Virus record (IMG/VR): IMGVR_UViG_3300042508_000526
Strand: one strand, 5' to 3'
DNA length: 64,000 nt
DNA from: a virus
Lineage: Duplodnaviria; Caudoviricetes
Shown: piece by piece, positions 1 to 57,600 of the stretch
Layout: the number at the start of each line of letters is the position of its first letter
Position numbering within the stretch: the first letter of the stretch is position 1
Translations under genes and position numbers: made by a program
The notes under the pieces: model-generated
Seen by the model: the letters and a program-made list of their open reading frames with translations, nothing else
Told to the model about the DNA's origin: nothing
The model's database searches: none

Positions 1-127
1 GCAACTGAAACACATACGGACCCGGCGCGTTAAATTTTCGATCTAGCTGCCACCAGACGCGCGTTGAGCCGCGGACCATATGATCCACGGAAACACGGCG
101 GAACGGGAAAACAGAAGATTGCGGCAT
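1..127 (-). CDS. partial CDS (N-terminus; runs off window), probable virion neck/head-closure region protein
   Basis: ATG at 127 opens MPQSSVFPFRRVSVDHMVRGSTRVWWQLDRKF..., open to the window edge; follows the 189-1181 gene. Confidence 0.5.
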   Translation of the reverse strand, partial: MPQSSVFPFRRVSVDHMVRGSTRVWWQLDRKFNAPGPYVFQL

Positions 128-4088: not shown

Positions 4089-5438
4089 TCAGCGATTCAC
4101 AAGTTCAAGCACATGCTGCTTCATCATGTCCCGCAGTTCGCGCGAACGCTTTGTGCGGGCCTCTTTAACTTGAAACCGACCAGCGCGCTTGAAGTTGACA
4201 ACAGCACGACCAATCGCGTCTAAGTCTTTAGCAGCGGCAGTCTTCGGGGCTTCGGGCATCGGGGCAGCTTCGGGAGCGGGGCCGGCTTCGCCGCCCATAC
4301 CGCCACCCATGCCGCCTTCTTGCACAGCTTGCAGCAAGGCTTCGGGCGGGATGCCAAGCTCTTCAAGAGCCATCGCTAGCTCTTGCACAGCCTCGTCTTC
4401 CGACGGCTCGCCACCTTCACCAGCAGCTTCGGGCGCCATCTCGCCGCCTTCGCCGCCCATCATGGCTTCAAGACCAGCCGGAGCGCCACCAGCTTCGGCA
4501 GCCGGGGCGTCACTCATACCAGACGCAGCATCGCCCGGGGCAGAATGATCTTCGCCCTCAGCGGCTTCTTCAGTCGGATCAGCACCGGCTGTCTTAGCGT
4601 TTAAAAAACCGATGAACAGGTCAGCCATTTCATCGGCGTCGCGGAGCGTGTTAGCGCACACCTCGCGAACCGAGGCTTCAGCAGCAGCCTTGTCCATGCC
4701 AAGAGCAGCGGCAAGTTCATAGCCGGCTTTGAAAGCAGCTTCTTTGCCCGACCGCAGCGCAGCGAGATCAGAACCCTCGATCTTACCGTCGTTGTCCGTG
4801 TCGAGCTTGTGCTGATCACCCTTTAAACCGCTGCCGGAGTGCTCGGCTTTCTCCTCAGCGGGAGACTCTTTTTTTTCTTCGGCCTTTTCTTTCAGGAAAG
4901 CCGGCATCTCAGCCGCCTTCTCGTTTACAAGCTTGCCGGTACCGAAATTGATCAGGTTGGCAAGAATATCGTTACCAAGCGAAGCAGCGCGGTCACGAGC
5001 TTCCTTGAACGAGACAGACGAGTACTTCTCGCCGTCATCCGCCTTCACCGGCGAAGAAGTGCCGGGATCGTCTTTCGTGCCCTTAAAGTCTTTTTCATTG
5101 GACGGGTCTTCGCCGGTCGCCTTAGCAGTCACGCCGATGTTTGTCTGCACATCGTCTTGACGACCTTCTTGCGACATCTCCGGTGTGTTGTCGACAGAGA
5201 GAGCACCTTGCTGCTTCTTGATGTCGGACTCGTACTCAGAAGCGCGCGCACCGGTGTTAGCGTTTTGAACGCCGTTGTCGGCGCTAGTAGTCGGGTGCGA
5301 GGAGGCGCCTTGATAACCGCCCGGATCGGCAGGCACGGGGCCAGCAGATTTTTCGGCCGCCGTCTTCACGGGGCTCTGCGAGATCTCTTCGGCGAGAGCG
5401 TTAAGTTGAGCGAACAGTGAACGTTGCATCCGTGCCAT
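4089..5438 (-). CDS. putative capsid scaffolding protein
   Basis: 449 aa acidic low-complexity protein between protease and capsid genes; many K-x-A motifs; one EF-hand-like DTDNDGKIEGSDL segment. Confidence 0.6.
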   Translation of the reverse strand: MARMQRSLFAQLNALAEEISQSPVKTAAEKSAGPVPADPGGYQGASSHPTTSADNGVQNANTGARASEYESDIKKQQGALSVDNTPEMSQEGRQDDVQTNIGVTAKATGEDPSNEKDFKGTKDDPGTSSPVKADDGEKYSSVSFKEARDRAASLGNDILANLINFGTGKLVNEKAAEMPAFLKEKAEEKKESPAEEKAEHSGSGLKGDQHKLDTDNDGKIEGSDLAALRSGKEAAFKAGYELAAALGMDKAAAEASVREVCANTLRDADEMADLFIGFLNAKTAGADPTEEAAEGEDHSAPGDAASGMSDAPAAEAGGAPAGLEAMMGGEGGEMAPEAAGEGGEPSEDEAVQELAMALEELGIPPEALLQAVQEGGMGGGMGGEAGPAPEAAPMPEAPKTAAAKDLDAIGRAVVNFKRAGRFQVKEARTKRSRELRDMMKQHVLELVNR

Positions 5439-49480: not shown

Positions 49481-49505
49481 GAATGCCGTCTCGAAAGGAA
49501 TAGCT

Positions 49506-49593: not shown

Positions 49594-50343
49594 TCACGAG
49601 ACGGCGACCGCGTTGACCACGGTGACCGGCTTCGACTGCTGGGTCTCGGCCTCGACCTGCGCTTCCGCCTCCGTCAGGCAGGTGGCGAGCAGCTCACGCC
49701 GCACGCCAGCCTGAAAGAACGCGTACGCCACTTCGGCCACGCAGCCAGCGGTCACGGCGCCGAAGAACACGGCGGTGATCTGCTGGACGAGCGTGCTGCC
49801 GCCGAGGCTGGCCGCGACACCGGCCATCGCACCACCGGAGAGCACACCGGCCACGACCGAGATACCGATCGTAGCGGCGGCCACCATGAGGTTGATGGCG
49901 ACGTTGTTCACGGCCACCCAGTCCACGTTCATGGAGCTGATCAGCTCCTTCACGTAGGACAGGGCCTCGCGGACCTTGCCGACCGCAGCCGTCGCCATCT
50001 GGCCGAGCCAGTTGACGACCGCCCGGACCGCATCAGCCGCGCTGGCGTAGATGCGGCCGAGGAACGTCCAGACACCGGACGCGATCGCCTTGAGGGCGCT
50101 GAACGCCTTCTCGGTGATCGTGTAGATGCCCTCGCCGATCCCACCCAGCACCGCCGCCGTGCCGTCATAGACGCGCACGAGCGGGCTGTTCGAGTGGACC
50201 GTCTCCTCGACGATCTGCTCGATGTCCTCCCGGGTGAGGGGCTTGGACTTGGTGCGCGTGCGAGTGGCCGAGGCCTTCTTCGTGGCCTTGACCCGACGGG
50301 CACCGATCTTCTCACGCATCGACATCTTGACCTTCGTTGTCAT
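49594..50343 (-). CDS. membrane protein with basic N-terminus
   Basis: 249 aa, GGAG RBS, own promoter and terminator; Lys/Arg-rich N-terminus, amphipathic middle, 2 TM helices. Confidence 0.75.
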   Translation of the reverse strand: MTTKVKMSMREKIGARRVKATKKASATRTRTKSKPLTREDIEQIVEETVHSNSPLVRVYDGTAAVLGGIGEGIYTITEKAFSALKAIASGVWTFLGRIYASAADAVRAVVNWLGQMATAAVGKVREALSYVKELISSMNVDWVAVNNVAINLMVAAATIGISVVAGVLSGGAMAGVAASLGGSTLVQQITAVFFGAVTAGCVAEVAYAFFQAGVRRELLATCLTEAEAQVEAETQQSKPVTVVNAVAVS

Positions 50344-50466: not shown

Positions 50467-51549
50467 TCAGCCGTCATTCCGGGCTTTCACCACCATCTGC
50501 CCCTTCGCAGGCCACAATACCATCTGTTGCATTGTGTCCTCGTCAGTTACATCTTTCAGTAACTGCAGAGCTGTTACTGGACGCTGCGCGATCTCTTCCT
50601 TGCGCTTGTCATTGAGCTTGTCGCGCAGGACGAGCTTCAGCGCGTCATACCGCGGATACGTGTTCCATTCCCAGCCGTCCTCGTTGACCGGGTTGTACTC
50701 AGCGTACTTCCCAGACACGTAATGGTTGGTTTGCGCCATCGCATGTCGCTTGGTGCGAATGGTCGACGTATCCCCGACATGAGTTACAACAGTGTGTTCT
50801 TTGGACTTGGTACCGACCACGTGCGCAAAAAACGGCACCATGGTTTCGTAGTTACGCAAGCCGAGAACTAACCCGTTGTAACTTGGCAGCTGATCACACA
50901 CGGCTCTGACCCGCTGTAAGGCAGGCCATTTGAAGAGCAGTGTGGGAGCTGCCAGCCAACCAGACCAAGTGTTAAGCTTGTTAACAATTGGCGCCTGATT
51001 GACCGTGACTGCCCAGTTGTCAGCCATTGCAGATATCACGCCCACCATGCCAGCAACGCCCACAGATGTGTAGGACTTGTTGCCACGGTGAAAGCGCAAG
51101 ATCTTGGTGTGCCGGCCTGTACTGCGCGGCACCACCCAGTCCATGTTCCGGACCAGCAATGGCGTGTTATCAACCTCGAAGCTGATACTGGAGCACCCAC
51201 AACCGTACATCTCGGCAAGAGATGTAAAGTCGTAGATGAGGTTCCCCAGCATCAACTTACCCACAGGGACATCAGCGTGCTGGGCAATGCACGCCAGTTC
51301 CTGTGTGTACTCTTCACCAAATTGATTGACAACTTGGCGAAGTAACCAGCCGGTGCCGGAAGCCAAAGCATGCAGCGCGGTACAGAGCGTGCTGCCCAGA
51401 TATGGCTCCAGTTCTTCTGAGACGGCGGTTTCCACGTCGTCCAGAAGCTCAGCGATGGCTCCGGCTTCACGCTGCGCGAATGTCGCCCAGCGTGTGTCGG
51501 CCGGCTCGTCGAGGTCGATGTCATGAACCCGCCGAGGACTTGTAAACAT
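50467..51549 (-). CDS. Ntn-hydrolase (C45/acid ceramidase/NAAA-like)
   Basis: helical prodomain, CGCSSI (nucleophile Cys), LLVRNMDW, VGVISAM, TVNQ, QTNH. Confidence 0.8.
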   Translation of the reverse strand: MFTSPRRVHDIDLDEPADTRWATFAQREAGAIAELLDDVETAVSEELEPYLGSTLCTALHALASGTGWLLRQVVNQFGEEYTQELACIAQHADVPVGKLMLGNLIYDFTSLAEMYGCGCSSISFEVDNTPLLVRNMDWVVPRSTGRHTKILRFHRGNKSYTSVGVAGMVGVISAMADNWAVTVNQAPIVNKLNTWSGWLAAPTLLFKWPALQRVRAVCDQLPSYNGLVLGLRNYETMVPFFAHVVGTKSKEHTVVTHVGDTSTIRTKRHAMAQTNHYVSGKYAEYNPVNEDGWEWNTYPRYDALKLVLRDKLNDKRKEEIAQRPVTALQLLKDVTDEDTMQQMVLWPAKGQMVVKARNDG

Positions 51550-52236: not shown

Positions 52237-54462
52237 TCAGGAGGCGGCCGCAACTCCAGCCCCTGCGCCACCCACAGCAGCCGCTCCGCCAGCCCCATAG
52301 GCCAAGCGTTTCCCGGCCGGCACCATCGGCGACGCGACCGTCATGCCATACTGGAGCATGGGCTTGTACACATACTTGCCAACCGCGGGCATAACGCCGG
52401 ATTCATGCGGCTTGTACACCATGCTGTGATCCGCGGCCGACAGCCCTTGCAGCCGGCGCGGTGAAAGCTGGAACTCCACGGGTGTCTGGCCCAGCGTGCC
52501 CTTGATGTTCCAGCCGTGATAGCCCGGGCGCTGGAGCATTTGCGATTTACTTATGTTTACGCCGGCCTCTGTCAGCTGCTTCGTTAAGCTATCAATGACA
52601 GGTTGGTCATAACCGCCCTGCGATGTGAGCCGAAAGCCCAGCAGGTCATTGGTTATTGTGTCGCCGTGGCCAGCAATACTTTGCGGTGTCTTTACCCGGC
52701 CGGCATACACTTGGAACCCTTTGGGCTGAAATGACTTCAAGAACTCATTGCCGGCCTGTAACGCCTGCTCACGTTCTTTCTGGAAAACGCCTTGGGGCAC
52801 ATTGTCGCCCAGCGTTGTCATGGGGCCACGAAATGCGCTTCGAGCTGCGCCCACAGCCTTCGAGATACCCTTGAGACCAATGCGCCGGCCGAACTCCATG
52901 AGATTCGCCGACTTTTCTTTTTCGTCGGGCCAGCCGGGTTGCAACTGGTATTCGTACACGGGCTCGCCATGCAGCAGTTGTTTCTTGGCGAGGGCTGGAA
53001 CTTTGCCGACCATAGCGCCGGACGGATCGGGTTGCAGGCGATAGCGTTCCTGCAGCCATTGTTTTTTGTATTCCGGATCTGTTTTGGCCAGCCGCATGAA
53101 CCCCTGTGTCTGCACAAAGTTTTCGATATCTTTGGGCGCAAGGGAAACATTATGTAATCTCTCGGGCGGCACGCTCAGGGGCGTAATCTTGTAGTGTGTG
53201 CCTTCTTCTAACTGGCGCTTGTGTGTCCGCTCCGCCAGATGTTTACGCAGCCGGTCGAGAACTTCCTGCTGTTTCTTCTTGTTCCCGGGAATGATGGCGC
53301 GCGCTTCCCCTGTCCGGGCATTGTTGTAGGCCAGTCCGGGGTGCTGCAGCTCATCAAGAATCTGGTGTAAAGACTTGCGCAGGTTCACGCCCTGCACATT
53401 GCCCTCAAAGCTGTACACGGCAGACTGCTTGCCGAACTCATAGGCGCTGGAGCATTTGCAGTTCCACTTGCGCAGAGATTTGTTAATGCGCGAGTCAGGA
53501 TCTTTGGCCGTGCTGGCGCCAGTGTTAACTCGACGCATGCCGCACATACGGGAGCAGAAAGAATTCTGGCGCTTGGCCCGGTCGCCCTTGGGGTTACTTT
53601 CGGTCACAGGGGCTTTTAAGTTCCCGCCGTGCTCCCGTTCGTAGCTCTTGCGCCCCTTCTCGTTGAGGCCGCCAGCTTCGTTTTTGCCCTCGCTGCGCTG
53701 CCATGCCGGAGTTGACGATATCTTTTCGCTGCTATTGGCGGTCCCAAAAGACGCATTGCCGTTAATATCGCCGCTGGACGAGATAGCCCCATAAGAATTA
53801 ATGGGATTGGCGTTGGGAGAGCTACCGCCGCCTACTGGAGGAAGCTGCCCGGATTGCCCTTGGGCGCTCGCTTGGCCGCCAGCAGGGGCCGCCGGGGCTG
53901 CAGGAGCCTGTGCCATACCCATTGGGGGCGGCGTCGCGGCAGCTGGCATGGCGTATCGTTTAATTCCACTGTTCATCGGCTGTAACTGGGCGTTTCGGGC
54001 CTCCTGTTCAGCCTTTTCATTCTCGATCGCCTGCATAATCGGCTGGGACAAGACGACCGAAAGCTTTTTAAACAAGCTATTTTCCGCTTTTTCCGGCATT
54101 TTTTCGCAGATATGGTTTTCCCCCACGGTTTCTGCCGGCTGGACGGGTTTTTCACCTGCCGCCATGGGTTTATCACTCTGGGGGAGCGTAACTTTAACCG
54201 TTGTAGACTCGGCTTTCTTGCAAATTTGGCTGTAAATACTTACCGCTAATGACTTTGCAGAAAAATCCCAGTTGTTTGGCACCATGGCTGTTTTCTTATT
54301 TGTATCGTCGTCGCTGGACTCTGGCTTTTTGTCTTCTTGAGCCTTGTCAGAGACGTACAGAGGGAGCTTTTTAGGCTTCGGATACTCATGCGCCCAGCGT
54401 TTGGCAATATCTGGGTGCGCAGCCCAGAGAAACCGTCGCTGTTTTTCTGAGCGAAAGGGCAT
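52237..54462 (-). CDS. multi-module cargo protein incl. acylphosphatase-like and RelA/SpoT-like synthetase domains
   Basis: MPFRSEKQRRFLWA module; AWQRSEGKNEAGGLN..SFCSRM..LRKWNC module; GNVQGVNLR; GRVKTPQSI, DLLGFRL, GYHGWN, VEFQL, DHSMVYKP. Confidence 0.75.
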   Translation of the reverse strand: MPFRSEKQRRFLWAAHPDIAKRWAHEYPKPKKLPLYVSDKAQEDKKPESSDDDTNKKTAMVPNNWDFSAKSLAVSIYSQICKKAESTTVKVTLPQSDKPMAAGEKPVQPAETVGENHICEKMPEKAENSLFKKLSVVLSQPIMQAIENEKAEQEARNAQLQPMNSGIKRYAMPAAATPPPMGMAQAPAAPAAPAGGQASAQGQSGQLPPVGGGSSPNANPINSYGAISSSGDINGNASFGTANSSEKISSTPAWQRSEGKNEAGGLNEKGRKSYEREHGGNLKAPVTESNPKGDRAKRQNSFCSRMCGMRRVNTGASTAKDPDSRINKSLRKWNCKCSSAYEFGKQSAVYSFEGNVQGVNLRKSLHQILDELQHPGLAYNNARTGEARAIIPGNKKKQQEVLDRLRKHLAERTHKRQLEEGTHYKITPLSVPPERLHNVSLAPKDIENFVQTQGFMRLAKTDPEYKKQWLQERYRLQPDPSGAMVGKVPALAKKQLLHGEPVYEYQLQPGWPDEKEKSANLMEFGRRIGLKGISKAVGAARSAFRGPMTTLGDNVPQGVFQKEREQALQAGNEFLKSFQPKGFQVYAGRVKTPQSIAGHGDTITNDLLGFRLTSQGGYDQPVIDSLTKQLTEAGVNISKSQMLQRPGYHGWNIKGTLGQTPVEFQLSPRRLQGLSAADHSMVYKPHESGVMPAVGKYVYKPMLQYGMTVASPMVPAGKRLAYGAGGAAAVGGAGAGVAAAS

Positions 54463-54586
54463 GGCGAAGCTCGTATGTCAGGCGCTGCTGTTTCCCAAGC
54501 TGAATACGCTTATTGTGGCATATGAAACGTGGGAAGAAAAGGGCATGCTATACTGGCGCGCTGGGGAGTTACAAAAGGAGGCCGCC

Positions 54587-54916
54587 ATGCACGCGCTCAA
54601 GACGAGTTTTATTTCGCTGGCGTTGATTCTGTGGGCTGGGGAAGCCTACGCAGAAACCTTAGAGATGTTTTCGGCTGACTGGTGTAAATACTGTCAGCAG
54701 GCGAAAGCAGATTTACTGCCTGAAGATGCGCTGGTGGATAAATACCGGCTGGAAATCATCGACGTGGACCGGGCCAAGGAACTCGCCAAAGATAACAATA
54801 TCAAAACCCTGCCCACGTTTATCCTGCGCGATGACGAGGGGAAAGAAATTGCCCGCCAGACCGGATATCACGGCCTGCGAAAGTTTAAACGCTGGCTAGA
54901 AAATCACACCCGCTAA
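54587..54916 (+). CDS. exported thioredoxin-family protein
   Basis: signal peptide, WCKYC, LPTF cis-Pro motif; AGGAGG RBS; TGCTATACT -10 upstream. Confidence 0.85.
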   Translation: MHALKTSFISLALILWAGEAYAETLEMFSADWCKYCQQAKADLLPEDALVDKYRLEIIDVDRAKELAKDNNIKTLPTFILRDDEGKEIARQTGYHGLRKFKRWLENHTR

Positions 54917-54975
54917 AATGGCAGGCCGCAAAGCTTTGTGCCAATTAGGCAGTGCTGTCTTGGAGCGCTGATATC

Positions 54976-55005
54976 TAAAAAAAGAGGGTACGGTGTATAC
55001 CCTCT
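54976..55005 (-). terminator. intrinsic terminator closing ncRNA candidate 1
   Basis: AGAGGGTA/TACCCTCT stem + T tract, then AGATATCAG. Confidence 0.8.
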
Positions 55006-55580
55006 CCGCGTTAACGTACGCGTTCCACGGGCCTATCTCTGACTCATCGTCAGTTGGGACCACCCATGCGTTTTCTCTAGAGGTTCTGCACCTCTAGCTA
55101 CCGCTTGGACATTACATCCGCGCGCTTCTACCAGTGAGGTTGCCCATACCCAAACCTCACCAGTTCTAGCGGCACAACACGACGTGCATAACACTCGTGC
55201 CACACCCTGTGCTAGATTCGATTGGCCAACGCAAAACCGCATGGCTCTACACCGTAAGAAACGGAACAAGAAAAATTAGAAACCACCTGCTTTAGACTTT
55301 CTTGCGAAAGCTATCACATGGCGTTTCTCCCGATTGGAGCAGCGCGCCAATCACGCGTCACTGTGCGTAGTTGCAGAGTGAAAATAAGTGCGATGTAGAT
55401 TTCTCCGGCATTACGGAGACCGCTACAACACGGCTTGGTACTGCGACCAACTTTACTGCTGCACTGAACAGCGCTGTCTGTATGATTTCCTCGGGGATAT
55501 ACGAGGACCGCATACTCGGCCAAGCACTCCGGCTTGCTTTACCGTGGACAGGCATTGCACGATTGATAGGTATTCCCCAT
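54977..55580 (-). ncRNA. large structured ncRNA candidate 1 (~600 nt)
   Basis: lies exactly between promoter copy 3 and a terminator; no credible ORF; >10 hairpins, GCAA tetraloop, G-U pairs on minus strand, 5'/3' end pairings. Confidence 0.7.
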
Positions 55581-55614
55581 CACTAGATATACCCGGTTTT
55601 TGCCCGATATTTAG
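55581..55614 (-). promoter_or_regulatory. conserved phage promoter copy 3
   Basis: CTAAATATCGGGCAAAAACCGGGTATATCTAGTG. Confidence 0.75.
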
Positions 55615-55679
55615 CTGGGCCCTGATAGCTAAAGAAAGCTTGCGCTTTGCGGAGCCGTCGCCTCCGCTGCCGACATGCT

Positions 55680-56063
55680 TTAGCTCGCCGTGAGCCGCTC
55701 GAAGATCGCGAGGACCTCCGGCATCTTGGTGTTGACGATTTCCTTGATTTCGTCATTCACCGCGACTTGAATCGGACCGGCGTTCTCAACCCACTTCTGC
55801 CCGACACCGGCGGCGAAGAAGTCGGCCAGCGCGGCCATCTCTTCGTCGGTGAAGTTTTCACGCAGGTGGCGCGCCATTACGGGCGCGAACGTGTCGATCG
55901 TGAAGACCTCCAGAAAGGCGGCCTTCATTGACTCGACCATCTGGGCTGGCAACAAGCCATTGCCCATGTTTTCGATCATGTTCTTCACCATCGTGTCGAA
56001 CATGTCACCGGCACTGATCACCGCCAGAAGCCGATCAACCGACGTCGCAGTTTCCATCGTCAT
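55680..56063 (-). CDS. DUF2059-like helical protein
   Basis: FTDEEMAALADFFAAGVGQKW resembles the DUF2059 core. Confidence 0.65.
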   Translation of the reverse strand: MTMETATSVDRLLAVISAGDMFDTMVKNMIENMGNGLLPAQMVESMKAAFLEVFTIDTFAPVMARHLRENFTDEEMAALADFFAAGVGQKWVENAGPIQVAVNDEIKEIVNTKMPEVLAIFERLTAS

Positions 56064-56722: not shown

Positions 56723-56807
56723 TTTGACGTAAGTGTTTGCAACACAAAGACTTACGTCAAAAAGGTATTCCGGTTTGACGTAACATGTTGCGGCACAAGG
56801 ACTTAGC
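56723..56807. repeat. two imperfect 34-bp direct repeats (51-bp period); the first is a 12-bp inverted repeat
   Basis: TTTGACGTAAGT-N15-ACTTACGTCAAA at 56723-56761; TTTGACGTAACATGTTGCGGCACAAGGACTTAGC at 56774-56807. Confidence 0.75.
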
Positions 56808-56817
56808 GCTAATAGCT

Positions 56818-56843
56818 AAAAAAAGCGGCGCCGAAGCCCGCTC
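56818..56843 (-). terminator. intrinsic terminator closing ncRNA candidate 2
   Basis: GAGCGGGC-TTCG-GCGCCGCT-TTTTT then AGCTATTAG. Confidence 0.75.
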
Positions 56844-57600
56844 GTGTCCGGTTTCATCACATGGTCGGATTCCACGCCACTGGGACAGACTAATGCGCTA
56901 GCCCGCCCGGTGGTGTTATATGCGCTTAAGGGCAACAGCAAGTAAGTGCGCAGTTACTTGTCGGCAGCAACGATGCGCATACCGCACCGCCTATGCTGTT
57001 GGGTCAGCCACTCACACCCATAGGGTCTTCTATGGGTGGAGCCTTTGAGGCCGCTGACCAGAACCTTCGCATTGCCGAAGCGAACGCGTCTAGGTTGTTA
57101 ACACAAGCAACGCCCACGGAGCAGGTACTACTACCCGCCTTGACCCCGTGATCCGTTTATTAGGCTACGTATACCATTGGGCTCAACTTATTAACGCTGA
57201 TCAGGCGTTAGTTTGTCGGGCTATTGATATACCGCAGGACTTTCACCTGCACCCCCCGCTCTCCTAAGTACTTTTTTATGAGCACAGTCGAGGAAGGAAC
57301 GCTCGTTTGCACACCATAGCACTCGCTTGTATGGCTTAACAGGGCGCTACCCCCGTGCAAACTCCATTGCCTTAACGCCTACCCCCACGAAATTCAACCA
57401 CCAAGGTTGCTCCCCATCCCTTGCGGAATGGGCCTCAGTGTGCGTGCACCCAGAGATTAGTTCATCTCACACGCTTCCGTAGGCGCTGCTTGTGTTAACA
57501 ACGCTAATAAATCCGACGCATTGCCATATTTCCACGTTACGCGTCGGACGTACATGGGGCCGGGCTTCGACCCCAGCGGACTGATGCTCACCCAGTTCGT
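56818..57600 (-). ncRNA. large structured ncRNA candidate 2 (~700-780 nt)
   Basis: ORF-free; 27-bp long-range helix 57476-57502/57094-57120; many nested hairpins; ends in UUCG terminator; 5' boundary uncertain. Confidence 0.7.

Follow-up and report, generated by a model that had tools for sequence, protein, structure and literature searches.

The minus-strand interval 54977-55580, here called winA, is on balance probably an accessory, lineage-specific non-coding RNA gene of a freshwater jumbo phage, folded as a chain of hairpins and containing one module under selection. The window analysed (64,000 nucleotides) spans positions 80270-144269 in a virus record of 203,206 bp that has direct terminal repeats, and given these repeats the phage is a complete jumbo phage; a near-identical stretch was present in public sequencing runs from lake-water metagenomes only. 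Almost all long ORFs of the window are carried on the minus strand, and a tmRNA and three tRNAs are located within 55-64 kb (Rfam / ARAGORN). According to the favoured reading, a promoter of the phage's own type would give rise to a minus-strand RNA of ~600 nt, ended by a strong intrinsic terminator and encoded in the hypervariable cassette-exchange region of the phage group. This RNA would present a selected 90-nt module: two hairpins, then a canonical ribosome-binding site and a start codon with a stop codon immediately after it. It may act in trans, binding a protein or the ribosome via the module, and the hairpin array may supply stability or further binding sites.

A predicted promoter-to-terminator transcription unit

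The elements that delimit the unit are as follows.

56063-55680, minus strand: DUF2059 gene, upstream of the winA unit
55616..55668, minus strand: terminator module of the upstream DUF2059 cassette, consisting of a GCGGAG/CUCCGC hairpin, a GCAA hairpin and a T-rich tail (read from the sequence)
55581..55614, minus strand: phage-specific promoter, with CTAAAT, a 17-nt spacer and TATATC within CCGGGTATATCTAGTG (from recurrence in the genome and in relatives)
54977..55580, minus strand: body of the predicted ~600-nt non-coding transcript, winA (no coding signal, MFE and z-score, no Rfam match)
55007-54981, minus strand: intrinsic terminator, GAGAGGGUAU / GUACCCUCUU, with an 11-bp stem, a 5-nt loop and U7 (terminator scan and MFE fold)

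The promoter motif, in the form CTAAATA-N12-CCGGGTATATCTAGTG at 55614-55581 (minus strand), places the predicted transcript start at ~55580 +/- 3 on the minus strand, and the terminator lies ~575 nt downstream of the promoter. A generic sigma-70 scan found no promoter at 55581-55614. Further copies of the motif are located at 56504-56471, 52233-52200 and 50463-50430 (all minus strand), with one more outside the window (4-5 in this genome); with small variations the motif stands before four of the window's units and before a fifth outside it, and it fronts many cassettes in about ten related ~200-kb phages (loci L003-L017). Because of this recurrence in the genome and before the cassettes of about ten related phages, the motif is, on the evidence of sequence, a real promoter type of the phage group. 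The group consensus reads CTAAAT-N17-(C/T)ATAT(C/T), embedded in CCGGGyATATCTArTG, and the promoter usually stands directly after a terminator whose T-tract runs into TAGCTATCAGCGC. Since promoter, T-tract and TAGCTATCAGCGC usually abut in this way, conserved terminator-promoter junctions delimit the cassettes, and these junctions are likely points of recombination.

Upstream, the terminator module of the DUF2059 cassette sets the DUF2059 gene apart from the winA unit, and the same module, GGCAGCGGAGGCGACGGCTCCGC, also closes cassettes in L006, L007 and L009. Downstream, a TAGATATCAGCGCT motif follows the winA terminator (54977..55007 element), as it does two other terminators in the window. 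These features support winA as a separate predicted transcription unit running from promoter to terminator, and the boundaries given in the preliminary description, from its own promoter to a terminator, were right: the recurrent group promoter is at 55614-55581 and the terminator at 55007-54981. The unit is single-copy, with no paralogue found in the rest of the genome, and it has no match or complement there longer than 14 exact nt (17 nt with one mismatch), which is at about the chance level.

A thioredoxin-fold protein with a probable signal peptide, encoded at 54587-54916 (plus strand), converges on the winA terminator from the opposite strand; its probable start is Met82 of a 190-aa ORF. 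No close relatives of this protein or of the flanking DUF2059 protein were found in IMG/VR.

Search for protein-coding content

Absence of protein-coding content from winA is supported by several sequence-based analyses. Log-odds of codon usage, for which 20 long genes of the window served as training set, were 0.4-0.7 for the flanking genes, versus at most 0.03 in the minus frames and at most 0.14 in the plus frames of 55580-54980, such that no codon-usage signal was seen in any of the six frames of 54980-55580. Chance ORFs of 55-101 aa in winA had codon scores of -0.46 to 0.08, no Shine-Dalgarno sequence and no PHROG match. A blastx comparison with 16,444 ORFs of related loci revealed no gene remnant in winA, and neither genetic code 4 nor reading TAG as Q opened a plausible ORF. 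Neither an ORF with a ribosome-binding site, nor a codon signal, nor homologues that would identify a protein-coding gene were found. The earlier statement that the interval has no RBS-supported ORF agrees with the lack of coding signal in six frames and needs one amendment, namely an RBS-backed start codon directly followed by a stop codon at 55319-55314.

Known RNA families and the search for relatives

A scan of the whole window with Rfam at gathering score gave no match of winA to a non-coding RNA family, and at E<=10 over 54800-55800 it returned only four chance matches (E 2-8) to unrelated eukaryotic and sRNA models. The assignments to GOLLD and to ROOL were both rejected, having no covariance-model match at gathering score or at E<=10, as were those to OLE, raiA, HEARO, RNase P, group I/II introns, 6S, tmRNA and tRNA (Rfam / ARAGORN). 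The preliminary description, which could place the interval in no known family, is borne out by these results, including those for ROOL, GOLLD, OLE, RNase P and introns even at E<=10. A type III toxin-antitoxin RNA (ToxI-like), defined by tandem direct repeats of ~34-36 nt adjoining a toxin gene, was rejected, with no tandem repeats at a score of at least 30 and no direct-repeat family in winA. A Csr-type sponge was rejected likewise: a hand count gave 7 GGA motifs where roughly 10 are expected, which is no enrichment. With regard to an anticodon-loop decoy, no hairpin with a 7-nt loop is present in the MFE fold.

Related ~200-kb phages and loci were retrieved via a neighbouring 741-aa protein (52237-54462, minus strand), which contains a DUF6321 domain and has an acylphosphatase-like match at E 6e-4, sub-threshold with respect to the Pfam gathering cut-off. 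Its N-terminal 350 aa form the conserved anchor of the phage group, with 230 relatives in IMG/VR and 442 in JGI metagenomes; these relatives share at most 66% identity over the conserved N-terminal half, and more only in short segments. winA was present in none of the relatives of the 741-aa protein retrieved from IMG/VR and JGI metagenomes. Searching the winA region with blastn against 50,697 phage records, which should include cultured jumbo phages, gave no match, and BLAST of winA against five whole related genomes matched the promoter only. When nhmmer was run with winA against 80 and then 168 related loci, the only match was a 90-nt module in L097/L098, two contigs from a distant relative; otherwise winA was missing from the syntenic region of 80 IMG/VR loci and of 80 metagenome loci. 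Two covariance models were built, R1 for the 90-nt module and R3 as a single-sequence model of the 3' hairpin domain; neither had further matches in 58 loci, nor in whole relatives (n=10 for R1, n=4 for R3). Exact-pattern scans of IMG/VR for hairpin 2 of the module and for its Shine-Dalgarno-start-stop arrangement returned 0 matches. The 23 matches of the hairpin-2 pattern in 185,579 prokaryote genomes were rejected as chance hairpins, scoring 13-20 bits with R1 as compared with 101-103 bits for the true copies. Collecting homologues, which had been proposed earlier, hence yielded one partial homologue with covariation in one helix and no homologue of winA as a whole, and winA as a whole is probably specific to the phage lineage and nearly orphan.

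Predicted fold of the minus-strand RNA

Two parts of the predicted fold are referred to below.

55297..55310, minus strand: CUUUC-GCAA-GAAAG hairpin with a GNRA tetraloop (MFE fold, pair probability 1.00)
55038..55216, minus strand: 3' array of six local hairpins, among them one of 22 bp with a bulge and five G-U pairs in a row, one of 12 bp and one of 8 bp (MFE fold)

The minus strand has an MFE of -245 kcal/mol (z -6.8), which is 38 kcal/mol lower than the -207 kcal/mol (z -3.9) of the plus strand; for winA on the minus strand the values ranged from -234 to -245 kcal/mol and z from -5.9 to -6.8. The z of -5.9 compares with a background of -1.7 +/- 2.3 in 71 windows of the same phage and so falls in the tail. 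Three other windows had a z below that of winA, one covering the neighbouring RNA winB and two covering long ORFs, and because two of the three lie over long ORFs the MFE z-score alone is weak evidence. The windows starting at 49501 and 50401 (minus strand), with z of -9.1 and -7.6, overlap the long ORFs 49594-50343 and 50467-51549, and structured mRNA or a composition artefact could explain their values. The number of hairpins is a better test of structure than the MFE z-score: three hairpins with at least 8 Watson-Crick pairs were observed in winA as compared with 0.13 expected from 500 dinucleotide shuffles, and the count of local stems of at least 7 bp was reached in 0 of the 500 shuffles. 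Long-range complements of at least 7 bp numbered 6, versus 7.1 +/- 2.8 in the shuffles, and the helices that would close the molecule had ensemble pair probabilities of 0.06-0.41.

Nearly all of the local helices listed in the preliminary description are present in the MFE fold, most with a pair probability of at least 0.9; those confirmed include CCUCG/CGAGG, UCUCCG/CGGAGA, a 12-bp CUGGUGAGGUU hairpin, CUAGAGGU/ACCUCUAG and CUGAC/GUCAG. In the 3' array pair probabilities are 0.9-1.0, except for a 4-bp UGGG/CCCA stem at 0.58. The long-range elements of that description fared differently. The TCCACGG/CCGTGGA and CCTATC/GATAGG pairings, proposed as a pseudoknotted closure, are present in the sequence but have P <=0.41 or are absent in the ensemble; likewise, the long-range CCATGC-GTTTT/AAAAC-GCATGG helix has low or no ensemble support (P <=0.41), and long-range pairings overall occur at the chance level. 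Because local hairpins exceed chance while long-range pairings do not, the modelled molecule is read as stable local hairpins strung in a chain, and a globally closed, "ornate" fold describes it less well.

GOLLD and ROOL are large ornate RNAs of phages and prophages whose structures have been studied by cryo-EM (PMC12286853), and the preliminary description had likened winA to them. We consider it quite unlikely that winA is a true ornate RNA of the GOLLD/ROOL type, with a global and possibly multimeric tertiary fold closed by 5'-3' pairings and a pseudoknot. The likeness holds for kind and setting: winA and these RNAs are non-coding and phage-carried, 0.6-0.8 kb in length, often adjoin tRNA genes and have no known function, and winA, at ~600 nt and near tRNA and tmRNA genes, has many helices and a GNRA tetraloop hairpin. 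It does not extend to family or architecture, as the Rfam models have no match at E<=10, the long-range pairings are at the chance level with low ensemble probability, many stems are of the long, near-perfect sort and not short ones with conserved junctions, and there is no covariation for any multi-helix junction and no conservation among relatives. GOLLD and ROOL have many conserved members, whereas winA is almost an orphan with no sign of a conserved multi-junction core or of oligomerisation. Covariation was found in one 90-nt module only, since the rest of winA has no detectable homologue, and the pseudoknot-closed architecture is accordingly not upheld.

Several inverted repeats, a local strand switch at the converging thioredoxin-like gene and a GC content slightly lower (0.50-0.53) than in the flanks would also fit an element acting at the DNA level, for example an origin of replication, a site for packaging or recombination, or inverted repeats bound by a protein (GC was 0.48-0.53 across 54000-55600 versus 0.55-0.62 in the flanks). 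This is highly improbable, however, as no iterons or tandem repeats were found, the structure is strand-specific owing to its many G-U pairs, winA fits exactly between a promoter and a terminator of its own, and cumulative GC skew does not turn here.

A 90-nt module with compensatory changes

The only conserved module of winA is shared with L097/L098 (metagenome contigs Ga0114968_10000011 and Ga0209400_1000846), which come from a phage whose homologue of the 741-aa protein is 45% identical.

55305..55395, minus strand: conserved module common to winA and L097/L098 (nhmmer, alignment A1, covariance model R1)
55358..55381, minus strand: hairpin 1, a 9-bp stem with the conserved loop GCAACUNCGC (alignment A1)
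55331..55353, minus strand: hairpin 2, UGAUUGG / CCAAUCG, with an invariant stem and a variable loop (alignment A1)
55314..55330, minus strand: start-stop mini-ORF, with the Shine-Dalgarno sequence GGAG (55330-55327), a 7-nt spacer, AUG (55319-55317) and UGA (55316-55314) (alignment A1)

The module comprises winA positions 186-276. Reciprocal nhmmer searches between winA and L097/L098 gave E 8e-4 and 1e-3, the two-sequence alignment A1 has 77% column identity over the module, and R1 gave the two copies scores of 101 and 103 bits, with no match in other places. In hairpin 1, five of the nine pairs are changed on both sides between winA and L097/L098 with pairing kept, and the G-U pairs of the hairpin in L098 fit the transcribed (minus) strand only. 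Of the module cells, 96.9% were paired, versus 28-41% with slid partners, and RNAalifold recovered hairpins 1 and 2 independently on a wider alignment. This covariation comes from two sequences and one helix. As the compensatory changes keep the module between phages that are 45% identical in the shared protein and whose surroundings are unalignable, the comparison indicates selection on the 90-nt module. Against the non-coding RNA gene reading as a whole, most winA helices are without comparative support, because there is no homologue of the whole RNA in 58 loci or at least 10 complete relatives.

In L098 the module lies within an 807-nt promoter-to-terminator unit (L098:1544-2345 = L097:100-901) with the same promoter type, no coding signal and an MFE z of -9.5, located upstream of the homologue of the 741-aa protein. 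This cassette is a mosaic: two of its blocks (74 and 20 nt) recur in L014, one of 52 nt recurs in L016, and the 90-nt module recurs in winA. It resembles winA in its promoter type, non-coding character, strong predicted structure, compensatory changes in the module and start-stop; it differs in that the two are unalignable outside the module and that its other blocks are common to L014 and L016 and not to winA. The conserved L014/L098 block is in different reading frames in the two phages, and is for this reason conserved at the RNA level. An Rfam scan of L098, L014 and L016 returned nothing, and the L098/L016 block pattern matched only L016's own contig. The jumbo phages of this widespread freshwater group would thus swap not just small protein genes but also RNA-only cassettes in their hypervariable cassette region, and short conserved RNA modules can be combined in such cassettes as a mosaic.

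A start-stop ribosome-binding site and its interpretation

The winA module ends in GGGAGAAACGCC-AUG-UGA, and L097/L098 has GAGGAGAAAGCC-GUG-UAA in the same columns (GGAG, 6-nt spacer, GUG, UAA). Both sequences hence have a Shine-Dalgarno sequence 5-9 nt from a start codon and a stop directly after it, and in these two sequences start and stop have both changed without loss of either function. Across 406 kb (both strands) the pattern is present four times, and on the gene strand in winA only; 0.006 occurrences are expected in 604 nt. It was noticed post hoc, in two sequences. The helix that encloses the start-stop in winA is not conserved in L098. As a lead, the start-stop is the only concrete functional feature found in winA and a candidate ribosome site, and the coupling of two hairpins to a conserved start-stop ribosome-binding site offers a concrete, testable handle.

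Lambda bar minigenes and bacterial start-stop elements are known elements, and phage minigenes that act through the ribosome are known. The bar minigenes have two sense codons and act via peptidyl-tRNA drop-off. We know of no established function for start-stops inside bacterial or phage non-coding RNAs. The predicted winA site is like these elements in having a Shine-Dalgarno sequence, a start and an almost immediate stop on a phage transcript, and unlike the two-codon bar minigenes it would allow no elongation.

If winA were a ribosome-engaging minigene RNA, its core would be the Shine-Dalgarno-start-stop or, here, a 13-codon frame from an overlapping GUG, with no productive elongation. Its action would lie in making the RNA more stable, in parking or titrating ribosomes or initiator tRNA, or in gating something downstream, on the model of lambda bar minigenes or bacterial start-stop elements. 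The canonical Shine-Dalgarno sequence with 6-7-nt spacing, the kept start and stop in the only homologue, and the rarity of the pattern (the sole gene-strand occurrence in the genome) point this way; the enclosing winA helix, not being kept in L098, does not explain conservation of the site, sequestration of tRNA by minigenes is a documented mechanism (PMC2490762), and the region contains a tmRNA, tRNAs and an S4-domain ORF. We nevertheless regard this explanation as unlikely, given that both codon differences are purine transitions in a conserved block, that the AUG is partly paired in the MFE fold, that peptidyl-tRNA drop-off, the route taken by bar minigenes, is not open to a start-stop, and that the feature was seen in only two sequences, after looking.

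A further step, which we regard as speculative and improbable, is that winA and the L097/L098 cassette represent an undescribed class of phage "ribosome-parking" RNAs, which would be long, nuclease-resistant hairpin arrays with a conserved module of two hairpins that presents a Shine-Dalgarno-start-stop. Such RNAs, transcribed from a phage-specific promoter adjoining phage tmRNA, tRNA and S4-domain genes, would capture ribosomes, initiation components or a translation-sensing host defence factor during takeover.

The same module could be read as the surviving leader, ribosome-binding site and start codon of a lost gene, in which case winA would be a transcribed relic, a decayed or scrambled cassette that kept its promoter and terminator, lost its gene content and contains functionless hairpins. 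The relatives' cassettes with the same promoter and terminator modules mostly hold small protein genes behind structured leaders, the conserved module resembles leader hairpins with a ribosome-binding site and start codon, and winA is absent from all close relatives. This interpretation is nonetheless somewhat unlikely: blastx detected no protein-level remnant in any frame, the hairpin excess and strand asymmetry would be unexpected from decayed coding sequence, the module was kept with compensatory changes while its surroundings became unalignable, indicating selection, and two independent decays would not both place a stop directly after the start. The non-coding RNA gene reading is the one we prefer.

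Contigs covering winA

One freshwater metatranscriptome (X20) contained a 164-nt contig that matches 55017-55155 with 1 mismatch in 139 nt, at a depth of 3.4; its 12-13-nt ends do not fit. The other X20 contigs listed across 15 kb are tRNA look-alikes with 3-8 mismatches, and the chance of a single random contig landing in winA is about 4%. The contig is a weak hint of winA abundance and not proof of transcription, as DNA carry-over is possible, and the parts of winA without RNA-contig cover in X20 carry no evidential weight. At the DNA level, 19 runs contain at least half of the stretch's sampled words, and contigs from three such runs show no differences; the DNA runs from lake-water metagenomes thus gave no polymorphism in the region with which to test selection.

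The neighbouring RNA winB

A second ORF-free region of ~0.8 kb, winB (57610-56816, minus strand), has the same promoter and terminator modules as winA and is directly preceded by an S4-domain ORF of 63 aa (57802-57611, minus strand). Conservation of winB extends to at least 8 related phages, with nhmmer E 1e-12 to 1e-18 in L004-L011 and L016. In an alignment of 8 phages (A5), RNAalifold predicted 205 pairs, of which 63 show compensatory changes; the predicted helices include a closing one of 25 bp (columns 133-157 with 519-543). An Rfam scan of winB gave no match, not even at E<=10. At about columns 600-700 the alignment reaches, in the relatives, the terminator and next promoter; winB of the window has an extra ~250 nt before its own terminator that are without counterpart there.

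winA and winB share strand, region, promoter and terminator modules, lack of ORFs and lack of an Rfam match, whereas winB, with its 63 compensatory pairs, occurs in at least 8 related phages that lack winA. The two had no sequence in common by blastn, and a profile nhmmer search with 8 winB sequences (~420-nt core) matched only the terminator/promoter junction before winA, not the winA body. winA belongs to no catalogued family and is by kind a large phage non-coding RNA, with support much thinner than that of winB. Large phage non-coding RNAs such as GOLLD and ROOL are among the least understood RNAs, and each example widens the set available for finding their function; being nearly orphan, winA adds little comparative power, and the well conserved winB is the better structural target.

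In a DNA run (X14), a 1667-nt contig from a related phage differs from winB (57113-57477) at 21 positions in 157 nt and 13 in 117 nt, and the 91 letters between these two pieces are exchanged for 85 others, suggesting that winB contains a variable sub-domain. Between the winB terminator and the next cassette, at 56723-56818 (minus strand), lie two adjacent 45-nt imperfect palindromic units (TTTGACGTAAG...CTTACGTCAAA), and a similar unit is present in L006 at about 4800-4890.
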